DNA of 64,000 bases from Minisyncoccota bacterium. GTDB taxonomy: Bacteria > Patescibacteriota > Minisyncoccia > Phycocordibacterales > UBA9973. The first letter of the stretch is position 1. Each line of letters begins with the position of its first letter. The notes beneath the pieces were generated by a model that made no database searches, was not told the origin of the DNA, and saw only the letters and a list, made by a program, of their open reading frames with translations. A program made the position numbers and the translations under genes. The DNA lies in contig JBDSNU010000007.1 of assembly GCA_039915165.1 (NCBI GenBank), forward strand, positions 113,812 through 177,811. The letters run 5' to 3'. Positions 2,602-63,192 of this stretch are shown here, piece after piece.

Positions 2602-3684
2602 TTACTGTTTAAATCTTATTTGGAAATTTAAATTCATGAAATTTTCACCATTACTTTCATAAATTTTACCGAATTCATGTCTGCCTGAACTGGGAGTATC
2701 AAAGTATGTATTCTTGTAGAGATAATCTTTAAACTCTTCTCGATTATACACATTATAACAAACCACATCACCATCATTTTTAACAATAATATAACCACCA
2801 TAAGCTTGCATATTTCCTTCCCATATTTTACTTGGCACCATACCCAGAGCAACCGCAACTAAAAACTCTTTCATTTTATGAACAAAAAAGGTTTTAGTTA
2901 TATTTAGTTTGTTATTTAAAGTTTCTTCTTTTTCAATAACATCAACCAGATCTTCAACTGATTTTCCTTTTCCTTGATAATAAGCAAGCAGAACCTCACT
3001 TAACATTTGTGGAAAAATGGAATCTGTCATTTTAAGATTTGATTCAAATTTCTTACTAGATGTTTCAATAAAATTTAATTTTACGCCATTATTAATTATC
3101 GTATTTATTCTATCTTTTATCTTAGATTTTGTTTTAATTGCATTTATTTCTTCAATATTAGGTATTCCTCCTTTTATTAAATAAATAAAATTAGTATGGC
3201 CTGAGGCATTTAATAATGTCGAACCACCTCCAAGCATAGATTTAACGCTAAATCCTAACTTTGTATCTTCAGGGGATATTCTATCTTTTACTGTCATAAT
3301 TAGATCTTCTTTTTTATAACTTGAAGCCTTAACTCTTGTACAATACATTTCGTTCATTAATTCTTCGGCAGTATTCGAAACAAAAGAAGATGAGGATGCA
3401 TTTTTTATCTCGTCAAAAATTTTAAGTGCGCATATCTTCAACTTTTCAGCTTTTATAACTGACAATTGTTCTCCATTTTTGATAATAGAAACTGAGTTTG
3501 AATCATTTGCTATTTCATATATGTATTTTTCTCCAGGGAATTCTTCTCTTATAATATTTAAAACTTCTAAGTATTTTTCTGGAATTCTATTTCGAGCAGA
3601 ATCAGCTGCAAATAATTTACCTTCTGAAAGAATTTTTACTAGTGCATAAAATTCACTCCATTCTCCCTTATTTGCTTTTATCAT
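2602..3684 (-). CDS. Type II restriction endonuclease, probably HpaII family.
   Basis: 360-aa ORF immediately downstream of the m5C MTase, overlapping it by 17 nt. The N-terminal KGEWSEFYALVKILSEGKL is recalled as the HpaII-family signature. Codon usage is AT-rich. Confidence 0.5.
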   Translation of the reverse strand: MIKANKGEWSEFYALVKILSEGKLFAADSARNRIPEKYLEVLNIIREEFPGEKYIYEIANDSNSVSIIKNGEQLSVIKAEKLKICALKIFDEIKNASSSSFVSNTAEELMNEMYCTRVKASSYKKEDLIMTVKDRISPEDTKLGFSVKSMLGGGSTLLNASGHTNFIYLIKGGIPNIEEINAIKTKSKIKDRINTIINNGVKLNFIETSSKKFESNLKMTDSIFPQMLSEVLLAYYQGKGKSVEDLVDVIEKEETLNNKLNITKTFFVHKMKEFLVAVALGMVPSKIWEGNMQAYGGYIIVKNDGDVVCYNVYNREEFKDYLYKNTYFDTPSSGRHEFGKIYESNGENFMNLNFQIRFKQ

Positions 3685-4552
3685 ATTCTTTCATTGACTT
3701 AATTATTTGTTTTGCAACAGCTTGAATTGCTGGAACTGCAACAGAATTTCCGAGCTGTTTCATCGCCTGAGCTTCTGAAACTGGAAATTGGTAGGTTTCA
3801 GGAAAACCCATCATTCTTTTACCTTCCTCAACTGTAATTCTTTTTGCCTTTCCATCTACTAAATAAGTATCCCAGTTTCTACGATCATGTAACCCAGATC
3901 CTCTTCCTCCAACACGTAATGTGTAACCAATATCTTTTTCACAATATGCGCCAAAAATATTAGACATGGTCATTGTTCTTTCTATTGGTTTTGGAAACTC
4001 AAATTTTATTTCTTTATTTTTAAAACCAATCATAAAAAGTCGCGCCCTATGTTGAGGAAGATTAAAGTCAGAAGCTCTAACTATTTTATAATAAAAAGAA
4101 TATCCCAGCTCTTCTTCAATAACTCTTTTTACTTCAGCGAAAGTATTACCGTTATCATGCTTTAAGAAGTGACTTACATTTTCAAGAAAAAATGCTTCTG
4201 GTCTTTTTTCTTTTAAGATTTTTACGATATCATAAAACAAAGTTCCTCGAACATCATCAAATCCTTTTTTCTTTCCCGCATGACTAAATGGCTGGCAAGG
4301 AAACCCTCCAGTGAGGATATTAAAATCGGGTATATTTTTAGGATCAACTTCTTTTATATCTCCAACAAAATTATTACCTTCAAAAATCCACGGTTCTTTC
4401 TTTTTGAAGTTTAGCTGATATGTTTCTCTTGCCTTTTGGTCCAGCTCAGATACAAAGACACATTCAGCTCCAGCATTTGAAAATGCAATATTAAAACCTC
4501 CAATACCCGCAAATAGATCTATAAATTTTATTTTAGAGTTATCTTGTTTCAT
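3668..4552 (-). CDS. DNA (cytosine-5)-methyltransferase.
   Basis: Motif I FAGIGGF, motif IV GGFPCQPFS and motif VI ENV (FFLENVSHF) are present. The C-terminal LGNSVAVP is also present. Confidence 0.85.
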   Translation of the reverse strand: MKQDNSKIKFIDLFAGIGGFNIAFSNAGAECVFVSELDQKARETYQLNFKKKEPWIFEGNNFVGDIKEVDPKNIPDFNILTGGFPCQPFSHAGKKKGFDDVRGTLFYDIVKILKEKRPEAFFLENVSHFLKHDNGNTFAEVKRVIEEELGYSFYYKIVRASDFNLPQHRARLFMIGFKNKEIKFEFPKPIERTMTMSNIFGAYCEKDIGYTLRVGGRGSGLHDRRNWDTYLVDGKAKRITVEEGKRMMGFPETYQFPVSEAQAMKQLGNSVAVPAIQAVAKQIIKSMKEYDKSK

Positions 4553-8566: not shown

Positions 8567-11500
8567 TTAGCTGCGTTTTTTGCTGAATACTGCCATTATA
8601 ACTAGTGCGCCAATAGCTAATAGTCCGAGAACTATTACCTTACCGGGACCAAGTGCTGTAACACCAGCAGCGCTGGCACTGAGCCCTTTCAAGGTTACTT
8701 CCGGATCTGACATTATGGTTCCTTCATCTGGAGCAGGAGCAGTAAGTATTGTGGTTGATGTAGTTTTTTTCTTGAGCGGAGTTTTTATGTCTTCCGCATC
8801 AGGCAAAATATCATCACTGGACTCATTATTTACATTTTCTTCTGATCCATCTGTATCAGTAGGAGTAACTGTACTACTTTGCATCGATACTGAAACATTA
8901 TTTCCCGACGAAGTTGCAATGGGAGCAGTTGTTGTGGTTGGAATAATCGTTGAAGTACTACCACCACTCTCAACTTTTAATTGTTTTATTTCTTCCGTAT
9001 TTCCGGCCCTATCGATTGATACAAAATAAACTGTACTACCTACACTTGTTGCAAAAGGCTTATCATATATTTGCCATACAATATTGTCAGTAGAATATTT
9101 TGTATTAAGGATGCCCGCATTATCATCTGTAGCTTTCAATGTAACTAAGCCATCAGCATATGTCGCTGTTGTAATGGGTACGACACTATCTTTTGCTTGC
9201 TTCTCTTCTAGAGATGATGATGCTTCAACAGTACGATCAATGGTGCCGTCATTATTATCATCAATAGTAATACTTGGTGAGCTATTTTCTTTACTTAAGG
9301 TAATCGTACCAAGTGTTTTGTCTGATAATAATGGCACTGCATGATAGTATGTTTGATGCGTTACAATATCAGATTCATCACTGTGCGAAATATACATGTC
9401 ATACAATCCAGCGGATTGTGCCTGCTGGGTTATTTTATATTTTGGACCAGTAGGTAAAAATACAAATTTTTCATCATCAATAACATCATACTGCACATTA
9501 GGAATTCCATACTCTATTCCTCCATCAATAGTTGGTCCAGTATGTCTACCTAATTCATCGTACACATTAAGCATAACTGGACTGTGCACATCAATAGTAT
9601 CCCCAGCCAAATTACATTGAGTCGACATAGTTGATATATCATTATTGGTAGTAGGCGCCTTGCCATCAAGTATTTGTACTATTGTGTCTTGAATTACAGG
9701 CAGTGATGCCACTGTGCCGTGCGAACCTGCGTGGACATAATAATTGTGAGCACCATTTTCAGCGACCGCGCTACTAACAGGAACTACGCCATCACCTGAA
9801 CCGTATAATAATCTATGCTCAGGGATTAACTTAAATCCAGTTAATGTTAAAGATTGTTCTTTTGTTAACGTAAAACCAGTAATTGTTTTTGTATTACCAC
9901 ATCCAGCAAAATCATACTTATCAAATGTCGAAGTCATTGTATCAATTTTGTCATGAAGTTGGTGGGCAAATGAAAACATGTTGTCATTTCTCCCATCCGC
10001 GATCATATACTTTTCGATATTGTCCTGACTCATATCATGTATTACTTGCGTTCTATCTTGAATGTAATGACTAACACCATCGATATATTTTTTGCTCGGT
10101 AAAAGTTCATACACTGAGGGCATATTTTGTGTAATAGTTTTCACTCGCTGCTCATTTAGTACGGGGACTTGTAATAACGAACCGAGAGAAAATCTAAAGC
10201 CCATATCATCACCATACATCAATGTTTTGAATGTTTTCGGAGCGCCGAGATGTGGCACTGCGATATAAAATAGATGATCAAGCGGTGCGGTTGGGTTTTC
10301 AGAAATATACTCTTTCACTAATAATCCGCCCATACTATGCGCAATGATGGTTACCTTTTTCTTCCCGCTCTTCAGTAATGCTTTTGCGATCATGTCTTTC
10401 AACAAGGATTGATTAACTGTATTACTTAGTCGCCAGTCATAGGGAAAGACAAATAAGTTAGCACCTTCGATATATCCTTTTGTATGTAAGGCATTTATCA
10501 TACTATTAAATATATCTACCGATGATGCTGAGCGAACAATGTCGCCTACTACCATTGGGCGCACTGTACTTGGAATACCGGTTTGTAATAACTCTAGATC
10601 ATTTAAATAACTATCTGTCGGACTTAGTGCAAGCTTAGCAATATTGGGCCATAACTCACTCTTATCTCCATAGTCTTTTGTTAAGATCGAACCGGTTATT
10701 CCTGGAACTATAATTATAGGATTTTGATCAGCTGTCGGAGGAGTAACAACGGGAGCCTCTGTTGTTGTCGGCTCATCTTTCATCCCTAACCATGGTTTAT
10801 AGATAACCTCAGTAGTGTTTTTTGTAATAATTGAATCACCTTTTCCCCCACTATTACTTTTAATGGTTGGCCCTGAATCACTGCCCCAGCCGTTATTTTT
10901 TATAACTGCTTTTACCATATCGATAACTGATACCCCTATAGTATTTCCATGAAAATAATTGTTGGTAATATTTTTAATTACAGGATTATTTAGTACGAGT
11001 GCAATTTTACTCGTAGTGAAATCAGAATTCGTAATAGTCAGATCACCTTGCTGCTCTGCAATAATAGCTGTTCCCGAAATATCTTTAAAATTACTGTGAG
11101 TAACACTTACCCCGGAAGCGGTTGCCTTAATAGCACTGCATAGATTGTGGAAATTGGTATATTTAATTTTACTATCAGCATTTGCTGCAAGAATGATAGA
11201 TGACATGTTGAGTGGACAAGTGCCATCTCCATAAACATTTACTGGTGATGCCTCCGTACCATTCACCACCAATGTGCCTCCTTGAGCTACATTAATACTA
11301 AACCCATCTTGAATAAAAACAGTAATACCATAATCTATAGTCAGCGTACCGCCATTCAATACCGTAATACCAAACACATAATATTCTCCATCGCGGGAAT
11401 TAAAATGGTAATTTTGACCTTGTAAAATATCACCACCATAATTCCACCCTTTAAACCCTTTCCCTAAAAACGTTGTGCCTGAATGTGTAAATGTGCCGTA

Positions 11501-12148
11501 AACATCAATCTGTGCTGGAAATGCCGTATCAAGAAAAGTACTGTCAGTTAATGTCACCTTTCCGCGAGTATTGGTCATACCAGTATTACAATTTGTAAAC
11601 ATCATATGGGAGGCATCAAGCACCACATCGCGGTCAACAGTTATTCCTGTCGCTGCATCTTTTATTTCTACGTATGACAAAGATCCAGAAGAGTTAGCCA
11701 TAAAGGTTATACCTCCATGTTTATTGTTTGTTACTGTTTTTTCAACAGACATTGAAACGCTCATGGGAACAACTTCGGGAGTTTGTATATTTTCCTCTTT
11801 TATTGGTTCGCTGTTATTAATCTCTTGCGTTAAAGTTTTTGCGGCTGATTCTTCATCTTTAGAAATAACTATATGGTTTTTTGTTGTACCTTTTGCGATT
11901 AATTTTCCATAGACCACTAGTCGTCCATTTTGTGCAAAAAATAATTGTGTTCCGGCAGGTATGATTAGCGTGGCTCCTACACTGACAAAAACATCACCCT
12001 TCACGGTATACGTAACATCGGCATCTAAAGTAGTTTCTGTTCGCCCTGGTTTTAATTCCTCGGCATAGACTTTTATAGTACTAAAAATAAAACTGGCAAT
12101 GAGAACGGTTATGGTAATAAAAAATGTTTTTTGGAATGGTAATTTCAT
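8567..12148 (-). CDS. Giant secreted surface protein with parallel beta-helix repeats, an alpha/beta-hydrolase (lipase/esterase) domain, a Ser/Thr-rich linker and a C-terminal TM anchor.
   Basis: A signal peptide is present (MKLPFQKTFFITITVLIASFIFS...YA). PbH1-like repeats are seen (NITNNYFHGNTIGVSV). The lipase nucleophile elbow is IIAHSMGGLLV. The C-terminus is GPGKVIVLGLLAIGALVIMAVFSKKRS. Confidence 0.6.
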   Translation of the reverse strand: MKLPFQKTFFITITVLIASFIFSTIKVYAEELKPGRTETTLDADVTYTVKGDVFVSVGATLIIPAGTQLFFAQNGRLVVYGKLIAKGTTKNHIVISKDEESAAKTLTQEINNSEPIKEENIQTPEVVPMSVSMSVEKTVTNNKHGGITFMANSSGSLSYVEIKDAATGITVDRDVVLDASHMMFTNCNTGMTNTRGKVTLTDSTFLDTAFPAQIDVYGTFTHSGTTFLGKGFKGWNYGGDILQGQNYHFNSRDGEYYVFGITVLNGGTLTIDYGITVFIQDGFSINVAQGGTLVVNGTEASPVNVYGDGTCPLNMSSIILAANADSKIKYTNFHNLCSAIKATASGVSVTHSNFKDISGTAIIAEQQGDLTITNSDFTTSKIALVLNNPVIKNITNNYFHGNTIGVSVIDMVKAVIKNNGWGSDSGPTIKSNSGGKGDSIITKNTTEVIYKPWLGMKDEPTTTEAPVVTPPTADQNPIIIVPGITGSILTKDYGDKSELWPNIAKLALSPTDSYLNDLELLQTGIPSTVRPMVVGDIVRSASSVDIFNSMINALHTKGYIEGANLFVFPYDWRLSNTVNQSLLKDMIAKALLKSGKKKVTIIAHSMGGLLVKEYISENPTAPLDHLFYIAVPHLGAPKTFKTLMYGDDMGFRFSLGSLLQVPVLNEQRVKTITQNMPSVYELLPSKKYIDGVSHYIQDRTQVIHDMSQDNIEKYMIADGRNDNMFSFAHQLHDKIDTMTSTFDKYDFAGCGNTKTITGFTLTKEQSLTLTGFKLIPEHRLLYGSGDGVVPVSSAVAENGAHNYYVHAGSHGTVASLPVIQDTIVQILDGKAPTTNNDISTMSTQCNLAGDTIDVHSPVMLNVYDELGRHTGPTIDGGIEYGIPNVQYDVIDDEKFVFLPTGPKYKITQQAQSAGLYDMYISHSDESDIVTHQTYYHAVPLLSDKTLGTITLSKENSSPSITIDDNNDGTIDRTVEASSSLEEKQAKDSVVPITTATYADGLVTLKATDDNAGILNTKYSTDNIVWQIYDKPFATSVGSTVYFVSIDRAGNTEEIKQLKVESGGSTSTIIPTTTTAPIATSSGNNVSVSMQSSTVTPTDTDGSEENVNNESSDDILPDAEDIKTPLKKKTTSTTILTAPAPDEGTIMSDPEVTLKGLSASAAGVTALGPGKVIVLGLLAIGALVIMAVFSKKRS

Positions 12149-15792: not shown

Positions 15793-16137
15793 ATGAACAA
15801 GCACATTTGCAAGAACTTTGTAGTAACCTGTATGGATTTCCGAATCCAAGCAACCGTTGAAGCATTACTGGAAAATCTCGGTATTGAAAAAGGCACATAC
15901 GACCGAACAAGTTTCGCCGGAGGTGCAGCTGATACAGAAAATTTGAAAAAACACTTAGAACTTTCAAAGCGTTTACACGAATCATCACATGCAATCCTTA
16001 CTATCCACGAAGACTGTGGTGCCGGAGCAAAAGAAGCAGACCTACTTACCGCAAAAACTATCGCGGATGAACTTGGGTTCACCTCACAACTATTTACTAT
16101 CAAGCTTGATGGTACATGGGAAGAAGTTCAGGGATAA
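15793..16137 (+). CDS. Small protein (114 aa) with beta-carbonic-anhydrase-like Zn-ligand motifs.
   Basis: CMDFR (CxDxR) and IHEDCG (HxxC) are separated by about 50 aa, as in beta-CA. The protein is far shorter than canonical beta-CA. Confidence 0.35.
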   Translation: MNKHICKNFVVTCMDFRIQATVEALLENLGIEKGTYDRTSFAGGAADTENLKKHLELSKRLHESSHAILTIHEDCGAGAKEADLLTAKTIADELGFTSQLFTIKLDGTWEEVQG

Positions 16138-22841: not shown

Positions 22842-23183
22842 ATGCCTACAGGAAATAAAAATCAAAGTGGTCGCGATACAAAGATTGAGGAACAAGTAAA
22901 AGAAATTGCCGCTCGCGTTATTGAACGTGAAAGCAACAAAACTGCACTGATCACTGTGAACTATGTTGAACTATATGAGAAAGGCCGCAAGGCAATGATC
23001 TATATCAGCGTACTTCCAGAAACTGGTGAAGAGTCAGCATTGAACTTCTTGAAGCGTAAGCGTATTGATATGCGTGATGAAGTAAAGAAGTACTTAAGAA
23101 TTCGTACTATTCCCTTTCTCGATGTTGCAATTGATATGGGAGAAAAAGCTCGTCGACACATCGACGAATTGTTGAAAGAATAG
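22842..23183 (+). CDS. rbfA: Ribosome-binding factor A.
   Basis: 113-aa KH-like protein immediately downstream of infB, in the conserved gene order. Confidence 0.8.
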   Translation: MPTGNKNQSGRDTKIEEQVKEIAARVIERESNKTALITVNYVELYEKGRKAMIYISVLPETGEESALNFLKRKRIDMRDEVKKYLRIRTIPFLDVAIDMGEKARRHIDELLKE

Positions 23184-23244
23184 TAAGATAGTGAAGCCGA
23201 CGGAAGCCCTTCGACAGATTTCTCCTTACGGAAAATCTTCTCAG

Positions 23245-23275
23245 GGCCGAAAATCGGCTATGCCGATTTTCGGCC
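23245..23275 (+). terminator. Hairpin terminator after rbfA. Its 3' arm overlaps the 5' end of tRNA-Cys by 4 nt.
   Basis: ggccgaaaatcggc-tat-gccgattttcggcc (14-bp perfect stem). Confidence 0.6.
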
Positions 23276-23343
23276 TGGTGGCCAAGTGGTAAGGCGGTTC
23301 TCTGCAAAAGAACTATACGCGAGTTCGATTCTCGCCCAGGCCT
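23272..23343 (+). tRNA. tRNA-Cys (GCA).
   Basis: Acceptor stem GGCCTGG/CCAGGCC. 3-bp D stem. Anticodon arm GTTCT-CTGCAAA-AGAAC. T arm GCGAG-TTCGATT-CTCGC. Confidence 0.8.
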
Positions 23344-23396
23344 CCTTCGCCGCGCTGAAGCTCGTAAGAGCGAAAGCGGGACGAGTAAGTAATATT

Positions 23397-23479
23397 GCCC
23401 GAGTGGTGGAATGGTAGACACGGGGGACTTAAAATCCCCTGCCCTCACCGGCGTGTGGGTTCGAGTCCCACCTCGGGCA
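23397..23479 (+). tRNA. tRNA-Leu (TAA).
   Basis: GCCCGAG...CTCGGGC acceptor stem. Anticodon loop CTTAAAA. Long variable arm. T arm GTGGG-TTCGAGT-CCCAC. Confidence 0.8.
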
Positions 23480-23523
23480 CAGAAAAGTAAATAAAGACAA
23501 ACATCAATGTGACTATTGAATTT

Positions 23524-23588
23524 GGGTGCACAGACAAAACAAAAAGCATTACCGTTTCGGTAATGCTTTTTGTTTTGTCTGTGCACCC
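23524..23588. terminator. 65-nt perfect hairpin (31-bp stem, 3-nt loop) between the convergent tRNA pairs. It overlaps the 3' end of tRNA-Lys.
   Basis: gggtgcacagacaaaacaaaaagcattaccg-ttt-cggtaatgctttttgttttgtctgtgcaccc. Confidence 0.85.
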
Positions 23589-23654
23589 AGCAGGACTCGA
23601 ACCTGCGACAGTCTCCTTAAGAGGGAGCTACTCTACCAACTGAGTTATGGGTGC
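23582..23654 (-). tRNA. tRNA-Lys (CTT).
   Basis: Acceptor stem GCACCCA/TGGGTGC. D arm ACTC-AGTTGGTA-GAGT. Anticodon loop CTCTTAA. T arm GCAGG-TTCGAGT-CCTGC. Confidence 0.8.
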
Positions 23655-23668
23655 ATAACCGTACAGAG

Positions 23669-23750
23669 TGCTGGGAGGGAGACTTGAACTCCCAAGCCTT
23701 GCGGCATTAGTTCCTAAGACTAACGTGTATACCAATTCCACCATCCCAGC
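23669..23750 (-). tRNA. tRNA-Leu (TAG).
   Basis: Acceptor stem GCTGGGA/TCCCAGC. Anticodon arm TTAGT-CTTAGGA-ACTAA. Long variable arm. T arm GGGAG-TTCAAGT-CTCCC. Confidence 0.8.
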
Positions 23751-61299: not shown

Positions 61300-61355
61300 T
61301 AAAAAAGAGCTTCCAGCCGCCTTCGTAACTACGTCGCGCCAAGGAGGCTCTTTTT

Positions 61356-62618
61356 TTATTGCACTTCTCCCAAATAAGGTAACGGTAGACCGTAGACATA
61401 TTTATCAGTAGTGTGGCGAAGCATGCTTTTCTGTAAGCGGTCCTTATTGGATGGCATCGTAGAGAGTACACTCAGACTATTTTGTCCAAACTTTTTGCGT
61501 ATAGCATCAACAGTGTGCATTAACCTCCCTTCCTCGGTAGTGTTTTTTTGCTCACCAAAAAGATCTTCTTGAATATGGATGTCTTTGCGCAACCCCCAGA
61601 CAGTAATTCCAGTAGCTTTGTATCGAATACCTTTTCGTAATAACAATATAACTTGTTCTCGAACAATCGCTGTTATATCTAATACGTTGTTGGTATAACG
61701 TGGCAAAGGAATCGCTATACCCGAATATTTACGGTCAGTGGTTTTAACATAAATACTAAGACCGTTGGTAAATAATCCTTGCTTGCGCATACGAGTAAAT
61801 ACCACATCAGCATTGTGCAGTAATTCGGCGGCGATATATGAGGGGTCTATTGAGGCTGGCATAAATGACCGTGTTGCCTGCAGCGACTTGGACTGAGAAC
61901 GATCATTAGAAACATCAAAACGGTTATGGCCCTTCATTTCATGCCATAATTCTTGAACAGGTGCATTAAAGGTTTCCATAACGCGCTGCTCTGGCCACTG
62001 GGTAAATTCATATGCGGTAGCTACTCGTAATGTTTGGAAGCGTCGAGATAGTCGCCAACCAATACCCCAGACAGACTCTATGCTGGTTTTTTGCAGTACT
62101 TCTTTTTCATCATCAATAGTGACTACTGTGGCGCCATCGGGTTTTTGATATTTTGAAGCCAACTTTGCCAATACTTTTGTGCGAGCCATGCCGAAAGAAT
62201 ACGTTAATCCAATCTGTAATTGGATTTTTTTCTTCAATGCAATAACCCACCCATACACTTGATCTTTGGACCATGCTTCTGGCAAACGTACTAGTGCAAA
62301 ACATTCATCAATGCTGTATTTTTCTAACACTGCAACTTCTGCATCCAGCAATGTACAAAGTTTAAGTGCATAATGGTCATACAATTCGAAATGAGAAGTT
62401 AAGATCGCCACTTGGGGAAATTGTTCTTTAATTTTGAACATAGGCATGCCACGAGTAATACCTAGGCGCTTCGCTTCATATGTCATAGCCATTGCAATGC
62501 CACGCTCTTCACCAACTACTACAGGTTTGCCGTGCAAATGAGGAAAGCGCGCGATTTCACAATATGCAAAAAAGCCGTCGCCATCGATATGAAGTATCCA
62601 TTCTTTTTTCTTAAGCAT
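61356..62618 (-). CDS. umuC: Y-family DNA polymerase (UmuC / Pol V catalytic subunit-like).
   Basis: The N-terminus is ILHIDGDGFFAYCE. The DEC region is SIDECFALV. The gene overlaps upstream umuD by 8 nt. Confidence 0.8.
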   Translation of the reverse strand: MLKKKEWILHIDGDGFFAYCEIARFPHLHGKPVVVGEERGIAMAMTYEAKRLGITRGMPMFKIKEQFPQVAILTSHFELYDHYALKLCTLLDAEVAVLEKYSIDECFALVRLPEAWSKDQVYGWVIALKKKIQLQIGLTYSFGMARTKVLAKLASKYQKPDGATVVTIDDEKEVLQKTSIESVWGIGWRLSRRFQTLRVATAYEFTQWPEQRVMETFNAPVQELWHEMKGHNRFDVSNDRSQSKSLQATRSFMPASIDPSYIAAELLHNADVVFTRMRKQGLFTNGLSIYVKTTDRKYSGIAIPLPRYTNNVLDITAIVREQVILLLRKGIRYKATGITVWGLRKDIHIQEDLFGEQKNTTEEGRLMHTVDAIRKKFGQNSLSVLSTMPSNKDRLQKSMLRHTTDKYVYGLPLPYLGEVQ

Positions 62619-62916
62619 ACTTTCTCACCACTGCTTTCACTACAGCAGTAATACTATAAGAAGTTTTGGCTTGAATAGTATCAAAGTATTTCATTTTCCA
62701 GACACCATCGATTGCAGCAATAACAATGTCACCGCGCTTAGCTTCTACTGCTCTCTCAACAATAACAAAATCTCCTTCACAGATCCCTGCTTCTTGCATC
62801 GCATTGCCACTAACACGCAACATAAATGATGCTTCCCTGTTATCGATCAAATACGCATCCAGAGTGGTGCGGTCTAAAAGATTTTCTTCAGCTGGTGTGG
62901 GAAATGAGTTTTTCAC
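62611..62916 (-). CDS. umuD: UmuD-prime-like S24 peptidase-fold protein; the N-terminal segment containing the UmuD self-cleavage site is absent.
   Basis: The protein aligns to E. coli UmuD from FPSPA onward: SFPTPAEE...RVSGNAM (Ser) ...GDIVIAAIDGVWKMKYF (Lys). The region including the Cys-Gly cleavage site is absent. The start is a GTG. Confidence 0.7.
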   Translation of the reverse strand: MKNSFPTPAEENLLDRTTLDAYLIDNREASFMLRVSGNAMQEAGICEGDFVIVERAVEAKRGDIVIAAIDGVWKMKYFDTIQAKTSYSITAVVKAVVRKYA

Positions 62917-62918
62917 CT

Positions 62919-62943
62919 GTTCAGTATACTGAACGATCGTTCA
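62919..62943. promoter_or_regulatory. Overlapping perfect palindromes at the umuD start: GTTCAGTATACTGAAC and TGAACGATCGTTCA (GAAC-N4-GTTC, Cheo-box-like). Putative LexA operator.
   Basis: Read directly: ctGTTCAGTATACTGAACGATCGTTCAc, 2 nt upstream of the umuD GTG. Confidence 0.5.
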
Positions 62944-63192
62944 CTACTCAATACCCTATTTATTTACGACACACAATTACCAGAGCGATAGTATCTATTA
63001 TTTTTTGATAGTGGTATTTTATATATAGGAATATTTTTTCTTCTCAATTCTTTCTTGACCGGAAGGTTCGGGTAACACGTATTGTTTACAATATGGACTA
63101 AGCGAACCCTAAACCACTATGACAGTTTCTTAGAATTCTTATCTCCCAGTACGACGTCTCCGCAAGGAGGCTTTTTGCATTCTTTTTTTTAT

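Follow-up and report, generated by a model that had tools for sequence, protein, structure and literature searches.

In Escherichia coli, the slow, RecA-dependent cleavage of UmuD holds mutagenic DNA synthesis back until late in the SOS response. Can an operon of this general kind encode the cleaved subunit directly and so do without the cleavage step? The question is raised by a pair of reverse-strand genes in a 64,000-nt stretch of contig JBDSNU010000007.1 (hereafter the window) from a Minisyncoccota bacterium, a member of the Patescibacteria (GenBank assembly GCA_039915165.1). In this pair, a short gene encoding a Peptidase_S24 (S24) domain precedes a gene for a Y-family DNA polymerase (Table 1). 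The most plausible reading, to which we assign a probability of roughly 0.7, is that the locus is a LexA-repressed, SOS-inducible translesion-polymerase operon, similar to that of DNA polymerase V (Pol V), that lacks the proteolytic activation step. An initial inspection of the letters alone (the sequence-only reading) had called it a umuDC-like operon, and a two-gene operon of this kind is indeed present. The S24 open reading frame (ORF) lies directly upstream of the IMS/IMS_C gene, its stop overlaps the polymerase start by 8 nt (ATGCTTAA), and the arrangement is kept in relatives. The exact proteins are recorded at NCBI as MEO5646103.1 (“S24 family peptidase”) and MEO5646102.1 (“hypothetical protein”).

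Table 1. Features of the S24-polymerase locus, with positions in the window
Feature	Position	Strand	Basis or remark
Y-family DNA polymerase gene, 420 aa	61356..62618	-	Pfam IMS and IMS_C
S24-domain gene, 101 aa, GTG start	62611..62916	-	Pfam Peptidase_S24
Palindrome GTTCAGTATACTGAAC	62919..62934	.	box half-site plus -10 hexamer plus non-conserved GAAC
-10 hexamer TATACT	62923..62928	-	promoter scan; ends 6 nt before GTG
Predicted LexA operator TGAACGATCGTTCA, GAAC-N4-GTTC type	62930..62943	.	conservation and matrix score
In-frame TGA stop	62941..62943	-	nine codons 5′ of GTG, no start codon between; read from sequence
-35 hexamer TTGAGT	62946..62951	-	promoter scan; TTGCAT in relatives

The S24 protein scores 56.3 bits against the Pfam family PF00717 (Peptidase_S24), for which the cut-off is 23.3 bits. 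A phmmer comparison with the PDB sequences shows that its alignment with E. coli UmuD and UmuD′ begins with Ser4 opposite UmuD Gly25, and UmuD from NC_000913.3 aligns in the same register. The protein begins M-K-N-S, with N3-S4 opposite UmuD C24-G25; it starts three residues ahead of the equivalent of the Cys24-Gly25 bond and contains no Cys-Gly or Ala-Gly scissile bond. The sequence-only reading had put the start of the alignment at residue 26, after the cleavage site; the alignments made here place it at residue 25. The N terminus is truly truncated, because a stop codon stands in frame nine codons ahead of the GTG and a sigma-70-type promoter covers the upstream stretch. The related loci L002 and L003 have an upstream in-frame stop arranged likewise. 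A longer N terminus is ruled out by the same stop and promoter: an in-frame extension that might restore the cleavage site was looked for, and none is found. The proposal that this UmuD is natively in the UmuD′ form is borne out by the alignment from the cleavage position and the upstream stop codon.

The Ser/Lys dyad had also been taken to be retained, which is true of only one of its members. UmuD Lys97 is preserved as Lys76, but UmuD Ser60, in the motif SGDSM, is replaced by Ala39 (SGNAM), a change common to the two closest relatives, P0001 (92% identical) and P0002 (64-66%). As the Ser nucleophile is lost, the protein is predicted to be protease-dead and not a processed but otherwise intact peptidase. 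About 18 residues that follow the catalytic Lys, opposite residues 101-118 of UmuD (the β-hairpin), are gone as well; the N-terminal arm FPTPAEENLLD and the β-barrel core are kept. The AlphaFold2 model of the protein has a predicted local distance difference test (pLDDT) score of 84.8, and Foldseek searches with this model find the UmuD′ structures 1UMU and 1AY9 at template modelling (TM) scores of 0.65-0.70. As modelled, the S24 fold survives the deletion of the hairpin. None of the dedicated NCBIfam or TIGR models reaches its cut-off: the protein gets 74.4 bits with the UmuD model NF007621 (cut-off, 110 bits), 38.6 bits with the HumD model NF051876 (120 bits), and 59.3 bits with the LexA model TIGR00498 (110.95 bits), of which it matches only profile positions 92-164. 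It has no N-terminal winged-helix DNA-binding domain.

The polymerase contains the IMS (113.6 bits) and IMS_C (43.5 bits) domains, along with a weak match to HHH. In a BLASTP comparison, it is 24% identical to E. coli UmuC over 411 aa, to residue 404/413. The alignment takes in the C-terminal LM..D...G / ML..TT region, and the catalytic D12 and D104/E105 are aligned with UmuC D6 and D101/E102. The match to DUF4113 is weak (17.9 bits with a cut-off of 24 bits). The NCBIfam UmuC model NF002955 gives 133 bits with a cut-off of 431, and the best of the models for DNA polymerase IV (Pol IV; DinB, NF002882 and others) gives 190 bits with a cut-off of 389. Since no UmuC or Pol IV cut-off is passed and the Pol IV models score higher, the protein is best classified as a Y-family polymerase with UmuC-like architecture and not as a UmuC. 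Its tail, ...LPLPYLGEVQ, belongs to a pattern, ...Y.YGLPLPYLGEV, that is conserved among orthologues whether their S24 partner is short or full length. In Pol V, UmuD′ binds mainly to the UmuC tail, and the N-terminal arm of UmuD′ inserts into UmuC (PMC6511836, PMC12926913). A complex of the S24 protein with the polymerase is proposed here by analogy to this binding mode.

The closest relatives of the S24 protein are not enterobacterial UmuDs. They are full-length LexA-like proteins of about 187-193 aa that carry the winged-helix domain, the VEAG/F cleavage site, the GDSM motif, the Lys residue, and the hairpin. In Saccharibacteria, other Patescibacteria, and Nitrospirota, their genes directly precede that of an orthologous polymerase. 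Loci L086 and L088 each contain, besides such an operon (“lexA2-polymerase”), a separate lexA operon (“lexA1”) that begins with one or two small ORFs. The S24 protein is 62-64% identical to the lexA2 products, 44-47% to the lexA1 products, 35% to E. coli UmuD, and 22% to HumD of phage P1. Its gene is best described as a polymerase-linked LexA paralogue minus the DNA-binding domain, the linker, and the protease function.

The short form is not confined to the window. A profile search of 1.84 billion cluster representatives, from which the best 150 matches were taken, yielded 23 retrieved sequences. Eighteen of these are about 93-114 aa long and lack the hairpin; together with the window's own cluster, P0001, they make up at least 19 clusters at 50% identity. 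In most of the retrieved short forms, the Ser and/or the Lys is replaced (e.g., S to A, N, or E; K to R, E, Q, T, A, or H), and many begin with Met-Gly-Phe, in which the Met directly precedes the cleavage-site Gly. Wherever the sequence downstream of a short form could be read, in each of seven distinct loci, a polymerase gene follows. Among the matches listed in a scan of species-representative genomes, the best, at 57% identity, comes from a Saccharibacteria metagenome-assembled genome; a metagenome scan returned almost exclusively full-length LexA-like genes.

The kinship with LexA bears on a different explanation of the 101-aa protein, namely that it is an uncleavable, SOS-induced decoy of the LexA C-terminal domain, with the polymerase merely co-transcribed. 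Such a decoy would heterodimerize with LexA or occupy RecA filaments and would act as a dominant-negative or feedback tuner of the SOS response. It is consistent with the identity levels given above, which are higher for stand-alone LexA C-domains and, above all, for the polymerase-linked paralogues than for UmuD, with the missing DNA-binding domain, and with the Foldseek search, in which the C-domain of Mycobacterium tuberculosis LexA is matched level with UmuD′. However, linkage to the polymerase is strict and is accompanied by translational coupling in every short-form locus whose downstream sequence can be read, and the polymerase conserves a C-terminal tail such as UmuC has for binding UmuD′ (PMC6511836). 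In addition, the UmuD′-type arm FPTPAEE is kept under purifying selection. A decoy role is unlikely in our estimate, and a hard-wired polymerase subunit accounts better for these features.

Selection on the gene pair is consistent with a functional subunit. Relative to L002, the S24 gene shows a synonymous divergence (dS) of ~1.18, a nonsynonymous divergence (dN) of ~0.06, and a dN/dS ratio of 0.05; for the polymerase gene, dN/dS is 0.04. Within the N-terminal arm, none of the first four nucleotide differences from L002 changes an amino acid. With a dN/dS of 0.05, the S24 gene does not look like a pseudogene. It could nevertheless be imagined as the decaying remnant of a lexA gene, in an operon where only the polymerase and the inherited operator still function: the presumed ancestral order, in which the polymerase gene comes directly after a full-length lexA-like gene, is common among Patescibacteria and Nitrospirota, and the window gene has lost the DNA-binding domain, the cleavage site, the nucleophile, and the hairpin. 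This reading is already disfavoured, and we consider it very improbable, given the low dN/dS at a dS of ~1.2, the silent nature of the four arm differences, the confident AlphaFold2 model, the S24 ORF remaining intact in lineages down to 59-66% identity, and the presence of the short form in no fewer than the 19 clusters mentioned above.

The relatives form a graded series, from full-length polymerase-linked LexA, through proteins with a short arm and the cleavage site, to proteins that start at the cleavage site, many of which also lack the catalytic Ser or Lys. In a rough neighbor-joining tree, which was built from ~100 columns without support values and serves as a lead only, the window clade and the short form of L004 fall on different lexA2 branches, which suggests recurrent truncation of lexA2. 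A broader evolutionary proposal is attractive but, at somewhat less than even odds, tentative. It holds that lexA2 encodes both an autorepressor and a “pro-UmuD-prime,” whose RecA-induced cleavage would free a C-terminal fragment, GFPTPAEE..., for the polymerase, and that in Patescibacteria (and Nitrospirota) it has repeatedly and independently been hard-wired into a pre-cleaved, protease-dead mini-subunit that has lost the DNA-binding domain, the scissile bond, Ser and/or Lys, and the hairpin. Many of the short products start with Met-Gly-Phe and, once stripped of the initiator Met, would be the same as the authentic cleavage product. If this proposal is true, the window captures one snapshot of a living LexA-to-UmuD′ series, in which UmuD-type subunits arise from SOS repressors.

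P0146 (182 aa), from the profile search, is a full-length LexA-like protein with a winged-helix domain and an RAG/F site, yet its hairpin is deleted and its Lys is changed to Arg; it is a possible intermediate or a possible uncleavable repressor. In related genomes, one or two small ORFs of 61-68 aa stand between a LexA box and the stand-alone lexA (L004, 2299-2688; L086, 2072-2453; L088, 3879-4085). A Pfam search with these ORFs gives no match. They would encode SOS-regulated small proteins, and a cell-division inhibitor is one guess at their function.

The regulatory region carries a single convincing operator. The sequence-only reading had noted two overlapping perfect palindromes next to the GTG, and both exist, but only one of them is conserved. 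The box TGAACGATCGTTCA fills the 17-nt spacer of the promoter TTGAGT-N17-TATACT. It is unchanged in L002 and L003, and the version in L004 is TGAACGTTCGTTCA; the box is 100% identical while the dS of the neighboring genes exceeds 1. The far arm of GTTCAGTATACTGAAC, on the other hand, reads TGAAT in L002, TGACC in L003, and TGTAG in L004, and it also differs in L171, L174, and L175. Its center is the -10 hexamer, TATACT or TATAAT in the loci compared. Because TGAACGATCGTTCA is conserved and the far arm of GTTCAGTATACTGAAC is not, one operator is assigned, within the promoter spacer; GTTCAGTATACTGAAC is probably not a separate operator and would represent the -10 hexamer plus chance.

The assignment of TGAACGATCGTTCA to the Gram-positive Cheo-box (LexA) type has held up well. 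The canonical lexA of L004 (187 aa; 116 bits with the NCBIfam lexA model, whose cut-off is 110.95) has an operon promoter of the form TTGCAT-g-TGAACGTTCGTTCA-cc-TATACT, with the same box as the S24-polymerase promoter of that locus. Boxes of the TGAAC-N4-GTTCA type stand in front of the lexA1 operons of L086 and L088. Among the 83 full-length LexA-like relatives with complete flanks in the genome and metagenome scans, 60 have an exact GAAC-N4-GTTC no more than 420 nt upstream. LexA-box-like sites at other SOS genes, which had been suggested as a check, are thus found at lexA itself in these three loci and in other relatives. A position matrix made from 23 independent sites upstream of lexA-like genes in other genomes, none of them from the window clade, gives the box 24.6 bits, compared with 13.3 for the runner-up in the window and with top scores of between 9 and 18 in 20 shuffled versions.

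The palindromes might still be the site of another regulator or chance or structural features of the promoter. In the window as a whole, the raw count of GAAC-N4-GTTC is an unremarkable 2 with 0.86 expected, the other exact TGAAC-N4-GTTCA, at 16068, sits inside a coding sequence, and a relaxed search of the window allowing two mismatches yields chance-level counts for both palindromes. The window-specific nature of GTTCAGTATACTGAAC and the lack of another SOS gene within the window fit this view too. It is hard to reconcile with a box that is invariant among relatives with saturated synonymous sites, recurs at lexA promoters in the same and in other genomes, and scores far above the shuffles, and we attach very little weight to it compared with LexA binding. 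A phmmer search of all six frames reveals no lexA or other S24 gene in the window; Pfam scans of its 20 largest ORFs identify ClpB, GyrA, PIF1 helicase, IF-2, tRNA synthetases, a restriction-modification pair, and similar proteins. As the 64-kb window contains no lexA, recA, or other SOS gene, LexA control in this genome is argued from the relatives and from the conservation of the box.

The spacing of the promoter is equally constant. In 12 of 12 polymerase-linked S24 genes examined (the window, L002, L003, L004, L006, L086, L088, L090, L171, L173, L174, and L175), the -10 hexamer ends 6 nt before the start codon, and all of them share the order -35 hexamer, box, -10 hexamer, 6 nt, start. So short a distance implies a leaderless mRNA. 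An annotated 118-aa N-terminal extension of P0004 is rejected, because the box and the -10 hexamer of that gene lie within it; translation most likely begins at an ATG that gives MGFATPAEE.

The nucleotides that flank the box differ between operons, even inside one genome. At the full-length lexA2-polymerase promoters, the box is CGAAC-N4-GTTCG (L006, 4733-4748; L086, 5925-5940; L088, 1919-1934), and at the lexA1 operons it is TGAAC-N4-GTTCA (L086, 2006-2021; L088, 3819-3834), as it is at every short-form promoter compared with them. A general rule by which TGAAC...GTTCA would mark lexA1 and the short forms, and CGAAC...GTTCG full-length lexA2, holds for L006, L086, and L088 but fails in the wider set. 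The flank difference may be lineage specific or due to chance.

Taken in sequence, these elements suggest the following course of events. LexA encoded elsewhere in the genome would bind TGAACGATCGTTCA and, as the box occupies the 17-nt promoter spacer, would block RNA polymerase. DNA damage would activate RecA, LexA would cleave itself, and the promoter would open. A leaderless bicistronic mRNA that starts at or next to the GTG would direct synthesis of the 101-aa S24 protein, and the 8-nt start/stop overlap would then allow translation of the Y-family polymerase. The S24 protein, in which both the cleavage site and the nucleophile are absent, would serve as a hard-wired equivalent of UmuD′: with no scissile bond, Ala in place of Ser, and the hairpin gone, it has no need of RecA-stimulated self-cleavage and cannot carry it out. 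Its N-terminal arm and the C-terminal tail of the polymerase would join, by analogy with Pol V, and the S24 protein would act as the accessory subunit. Of these steps, repression (apart from LexA binding as such) and the lack of processing are drawn mainly from the sequences themselves, whereas induction, expression, and complex formation are inferred.

Under this scheme, the operon would lack the post-translational switch that times Pol V in E. coli, and control at the cleavage step would be transcriptional only. The sequence-only reading had proposed that SOS control is purely transcriptional; for the cleavage step, this is supported by the native short form and by the LexA-type box at the promoter. 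Its further suggestion, that Pol V could be activated without processing by RecA, stands as far as the missing cleavage step is concerned, but RecA may still be needed for activation of the polymerase, as it is in Pol V Mut.

Several observations weigh against a Pol V-like operon under LexA control. The polymerase scores higher with Pol IV than with UmuC models and reaches the cut-off of neither. The S24 protein resembles LexA C-domains more than it does UmuD, which makes a role related to LexA possible. The deleted hairpin may matter for the dimerization of UmuD′ or for partner binding. A GTG start is unusual on a leaderless mRNA, and the Pfam scans of the 20 largest ORFs reveal no SOS genes in the window.

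The surroundings of the operon contain further elements. Downstream, between the polymerase gene and a convergent DoxX-like gene, a long GC-rich hairpin with A-run and T-run flanks (AAAAAAGAGCTTCC...GGAGGCTCTTTTTTT; 61300-61355) resembles a bidirectional terminator, on which a simple terminator scan made no call. Directly upstream of the S24-polymerase promoter, and divergent from it, there is a conserved non-coding element of ~170 nt (63017-63187 on the + strand of the window; L002, 5735-5900; L003, 2476-2644). Its mean identity is 79%, while the synonymous sites of the neighboring genes are saturated, and in L002 it still adjoins the operon even though the upstream protein gene differs. RNAalifold favors the + strand (-31.0 versus -21.2 kcal/mol), with seven pairs showing double changes, and the 3′ end of the element consists of a GUCUCC-GNAA-GGAGGC hairpin followed by a U-run. 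A search of the element against Rfam gives no match. On the evidence of three sequences, it is a candidate small RNA.

Elsewhere in the window, an HpaII-type restriction endonuclease (PF09561, E = 4e-108) adjoins a C-5 cytosine methyltransferase (2602-4552, - strand), forming a CCGG-type pair. The only Pfam match in a 1193-aa ORF (8567-12148, - strand) is an LCAT (lecithin:cholesterol acyltransferase) domain (residues 543-728), an uncommon find in a bacterium with a small genome. Four tRNA genes (Cys, Leu-taa, Lys, and Leu-tag) lie on both strands at 23272-23750, and a 159-aa ORF that overlaps this cluster (23107-23586, - strand) is probably spurious.

An operon that encodes the active form of the subunit directly would mean that an entire group of bacteria with small genomes can do without the cleavage checkpoint. 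Its graded relatives offer a concrete and testable route from a LexA-like repressor to a UmuD-like polymerase subunit. With one operator, a leaderless promoter, and two genes, the locus also represents a clean minimal system for SOS mutagenesis in uncultivated Patescibacteria.

Comparison with known systems places the locus between several of them, and a 2017 paper on the SOS response of Patescibacteria by Sanchez-Osuna and co-workers may already describe part of these operons. The lexA2-polymerase operons (for example, those of L006, L086, and L088) have the same layout of promoter, box, and leaderless start, an orthologous polymerase, and the same polymerase tail; unlike the window protein, their LexA2 products keep the winged-helix domain, the VEAG/F site, the Ser of GDSM, the Lys, and the hairpin. 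As in E. coli umuDC, an S24 gene lies behind a LexA box, ahead of a Y-family polymerase gene and overlapping it; the S24 fold and the arm motif (G)FP(S/T)PA are shared, and the polymerase aligns with UmuC end to end, including a putative C-terminal extension. The window locus differs from umuDC in that the N-terminal 24 residues, the Cys-Gly bond, and the Ser nucleophile are missing, ~18 residues are deleted, the mRNA is predicted to be leaderless, and neither protein reaches the NCBIfam UmuD or UmuC cut-off. The operators differ as well: that of E. coli LexA is CTGT-N8-ACAG, whereas the window box is of the GAAC-N4-GTTC type.

UmuDAb of Acinetobacter is an S24 protein tied to both error-prone polymerases and SOS regulation (PMC8565304, PMC11332147), which illustrates that LexA and UmuD are not separated by a fixed boundary. 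The direction is different, however: UmuDAb is a UmuD that gained a repressor function and still cleaves itself, whereas the window protein is LexA-like and has lost both DNA binding and cleavage. The YolD/YqjX systems of Bacillus have a LexA box of the GAAC-N4-GTTC type, but their accessory proteins belong to an unrelated family, PF08863, and not to S24. They are small non-proteolytic proteins encoded upstream of SOS-regulated UmuC-like polymerases (PMC6511836).

The nearest functional parallel is HumD of phage P1. HumD, like gp26 of phage N15, is a natively activated UmuD′ homologue that is encoded without the N-terminal 24 residues and begins at the Gly of the cleavage site (PMC7092418; McLenigan et al. 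1999, a title cited in PMC8460599). In the P1 genome record (NC_005856.1), the N terminus of HumD reads MGFPSPAADY; a LexA site is annotated 20 nt ahead of the gene, and the annotation has the product complement UmuD′ of E. coli. As phage P1 already has this design, a natively activated UmuD is not new as a principle. The window protein, too, begins as encoded where UmuD is cleaved, and its gene lies behind a LexA-type site; several of its short-form relatives begin with MGF, as HumD does. The resemblance is functional only, as the two are 22% identical and HumD, unlike the window protein, retains the Ser in its D-S-H motif, the Lys, and the internal hairpin. HumD is also a phage gene without a cognate polymerase gene. 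The window locus, by contrast, is a chromosomal operon with its own polymerase gene and a leaderless promoter with an embedded operator; its S24 protein appears to be derived from a LexA paralogue, has lost the nucleophile and the hairpin, and belongs to a sizeable family in Patescibacteria.

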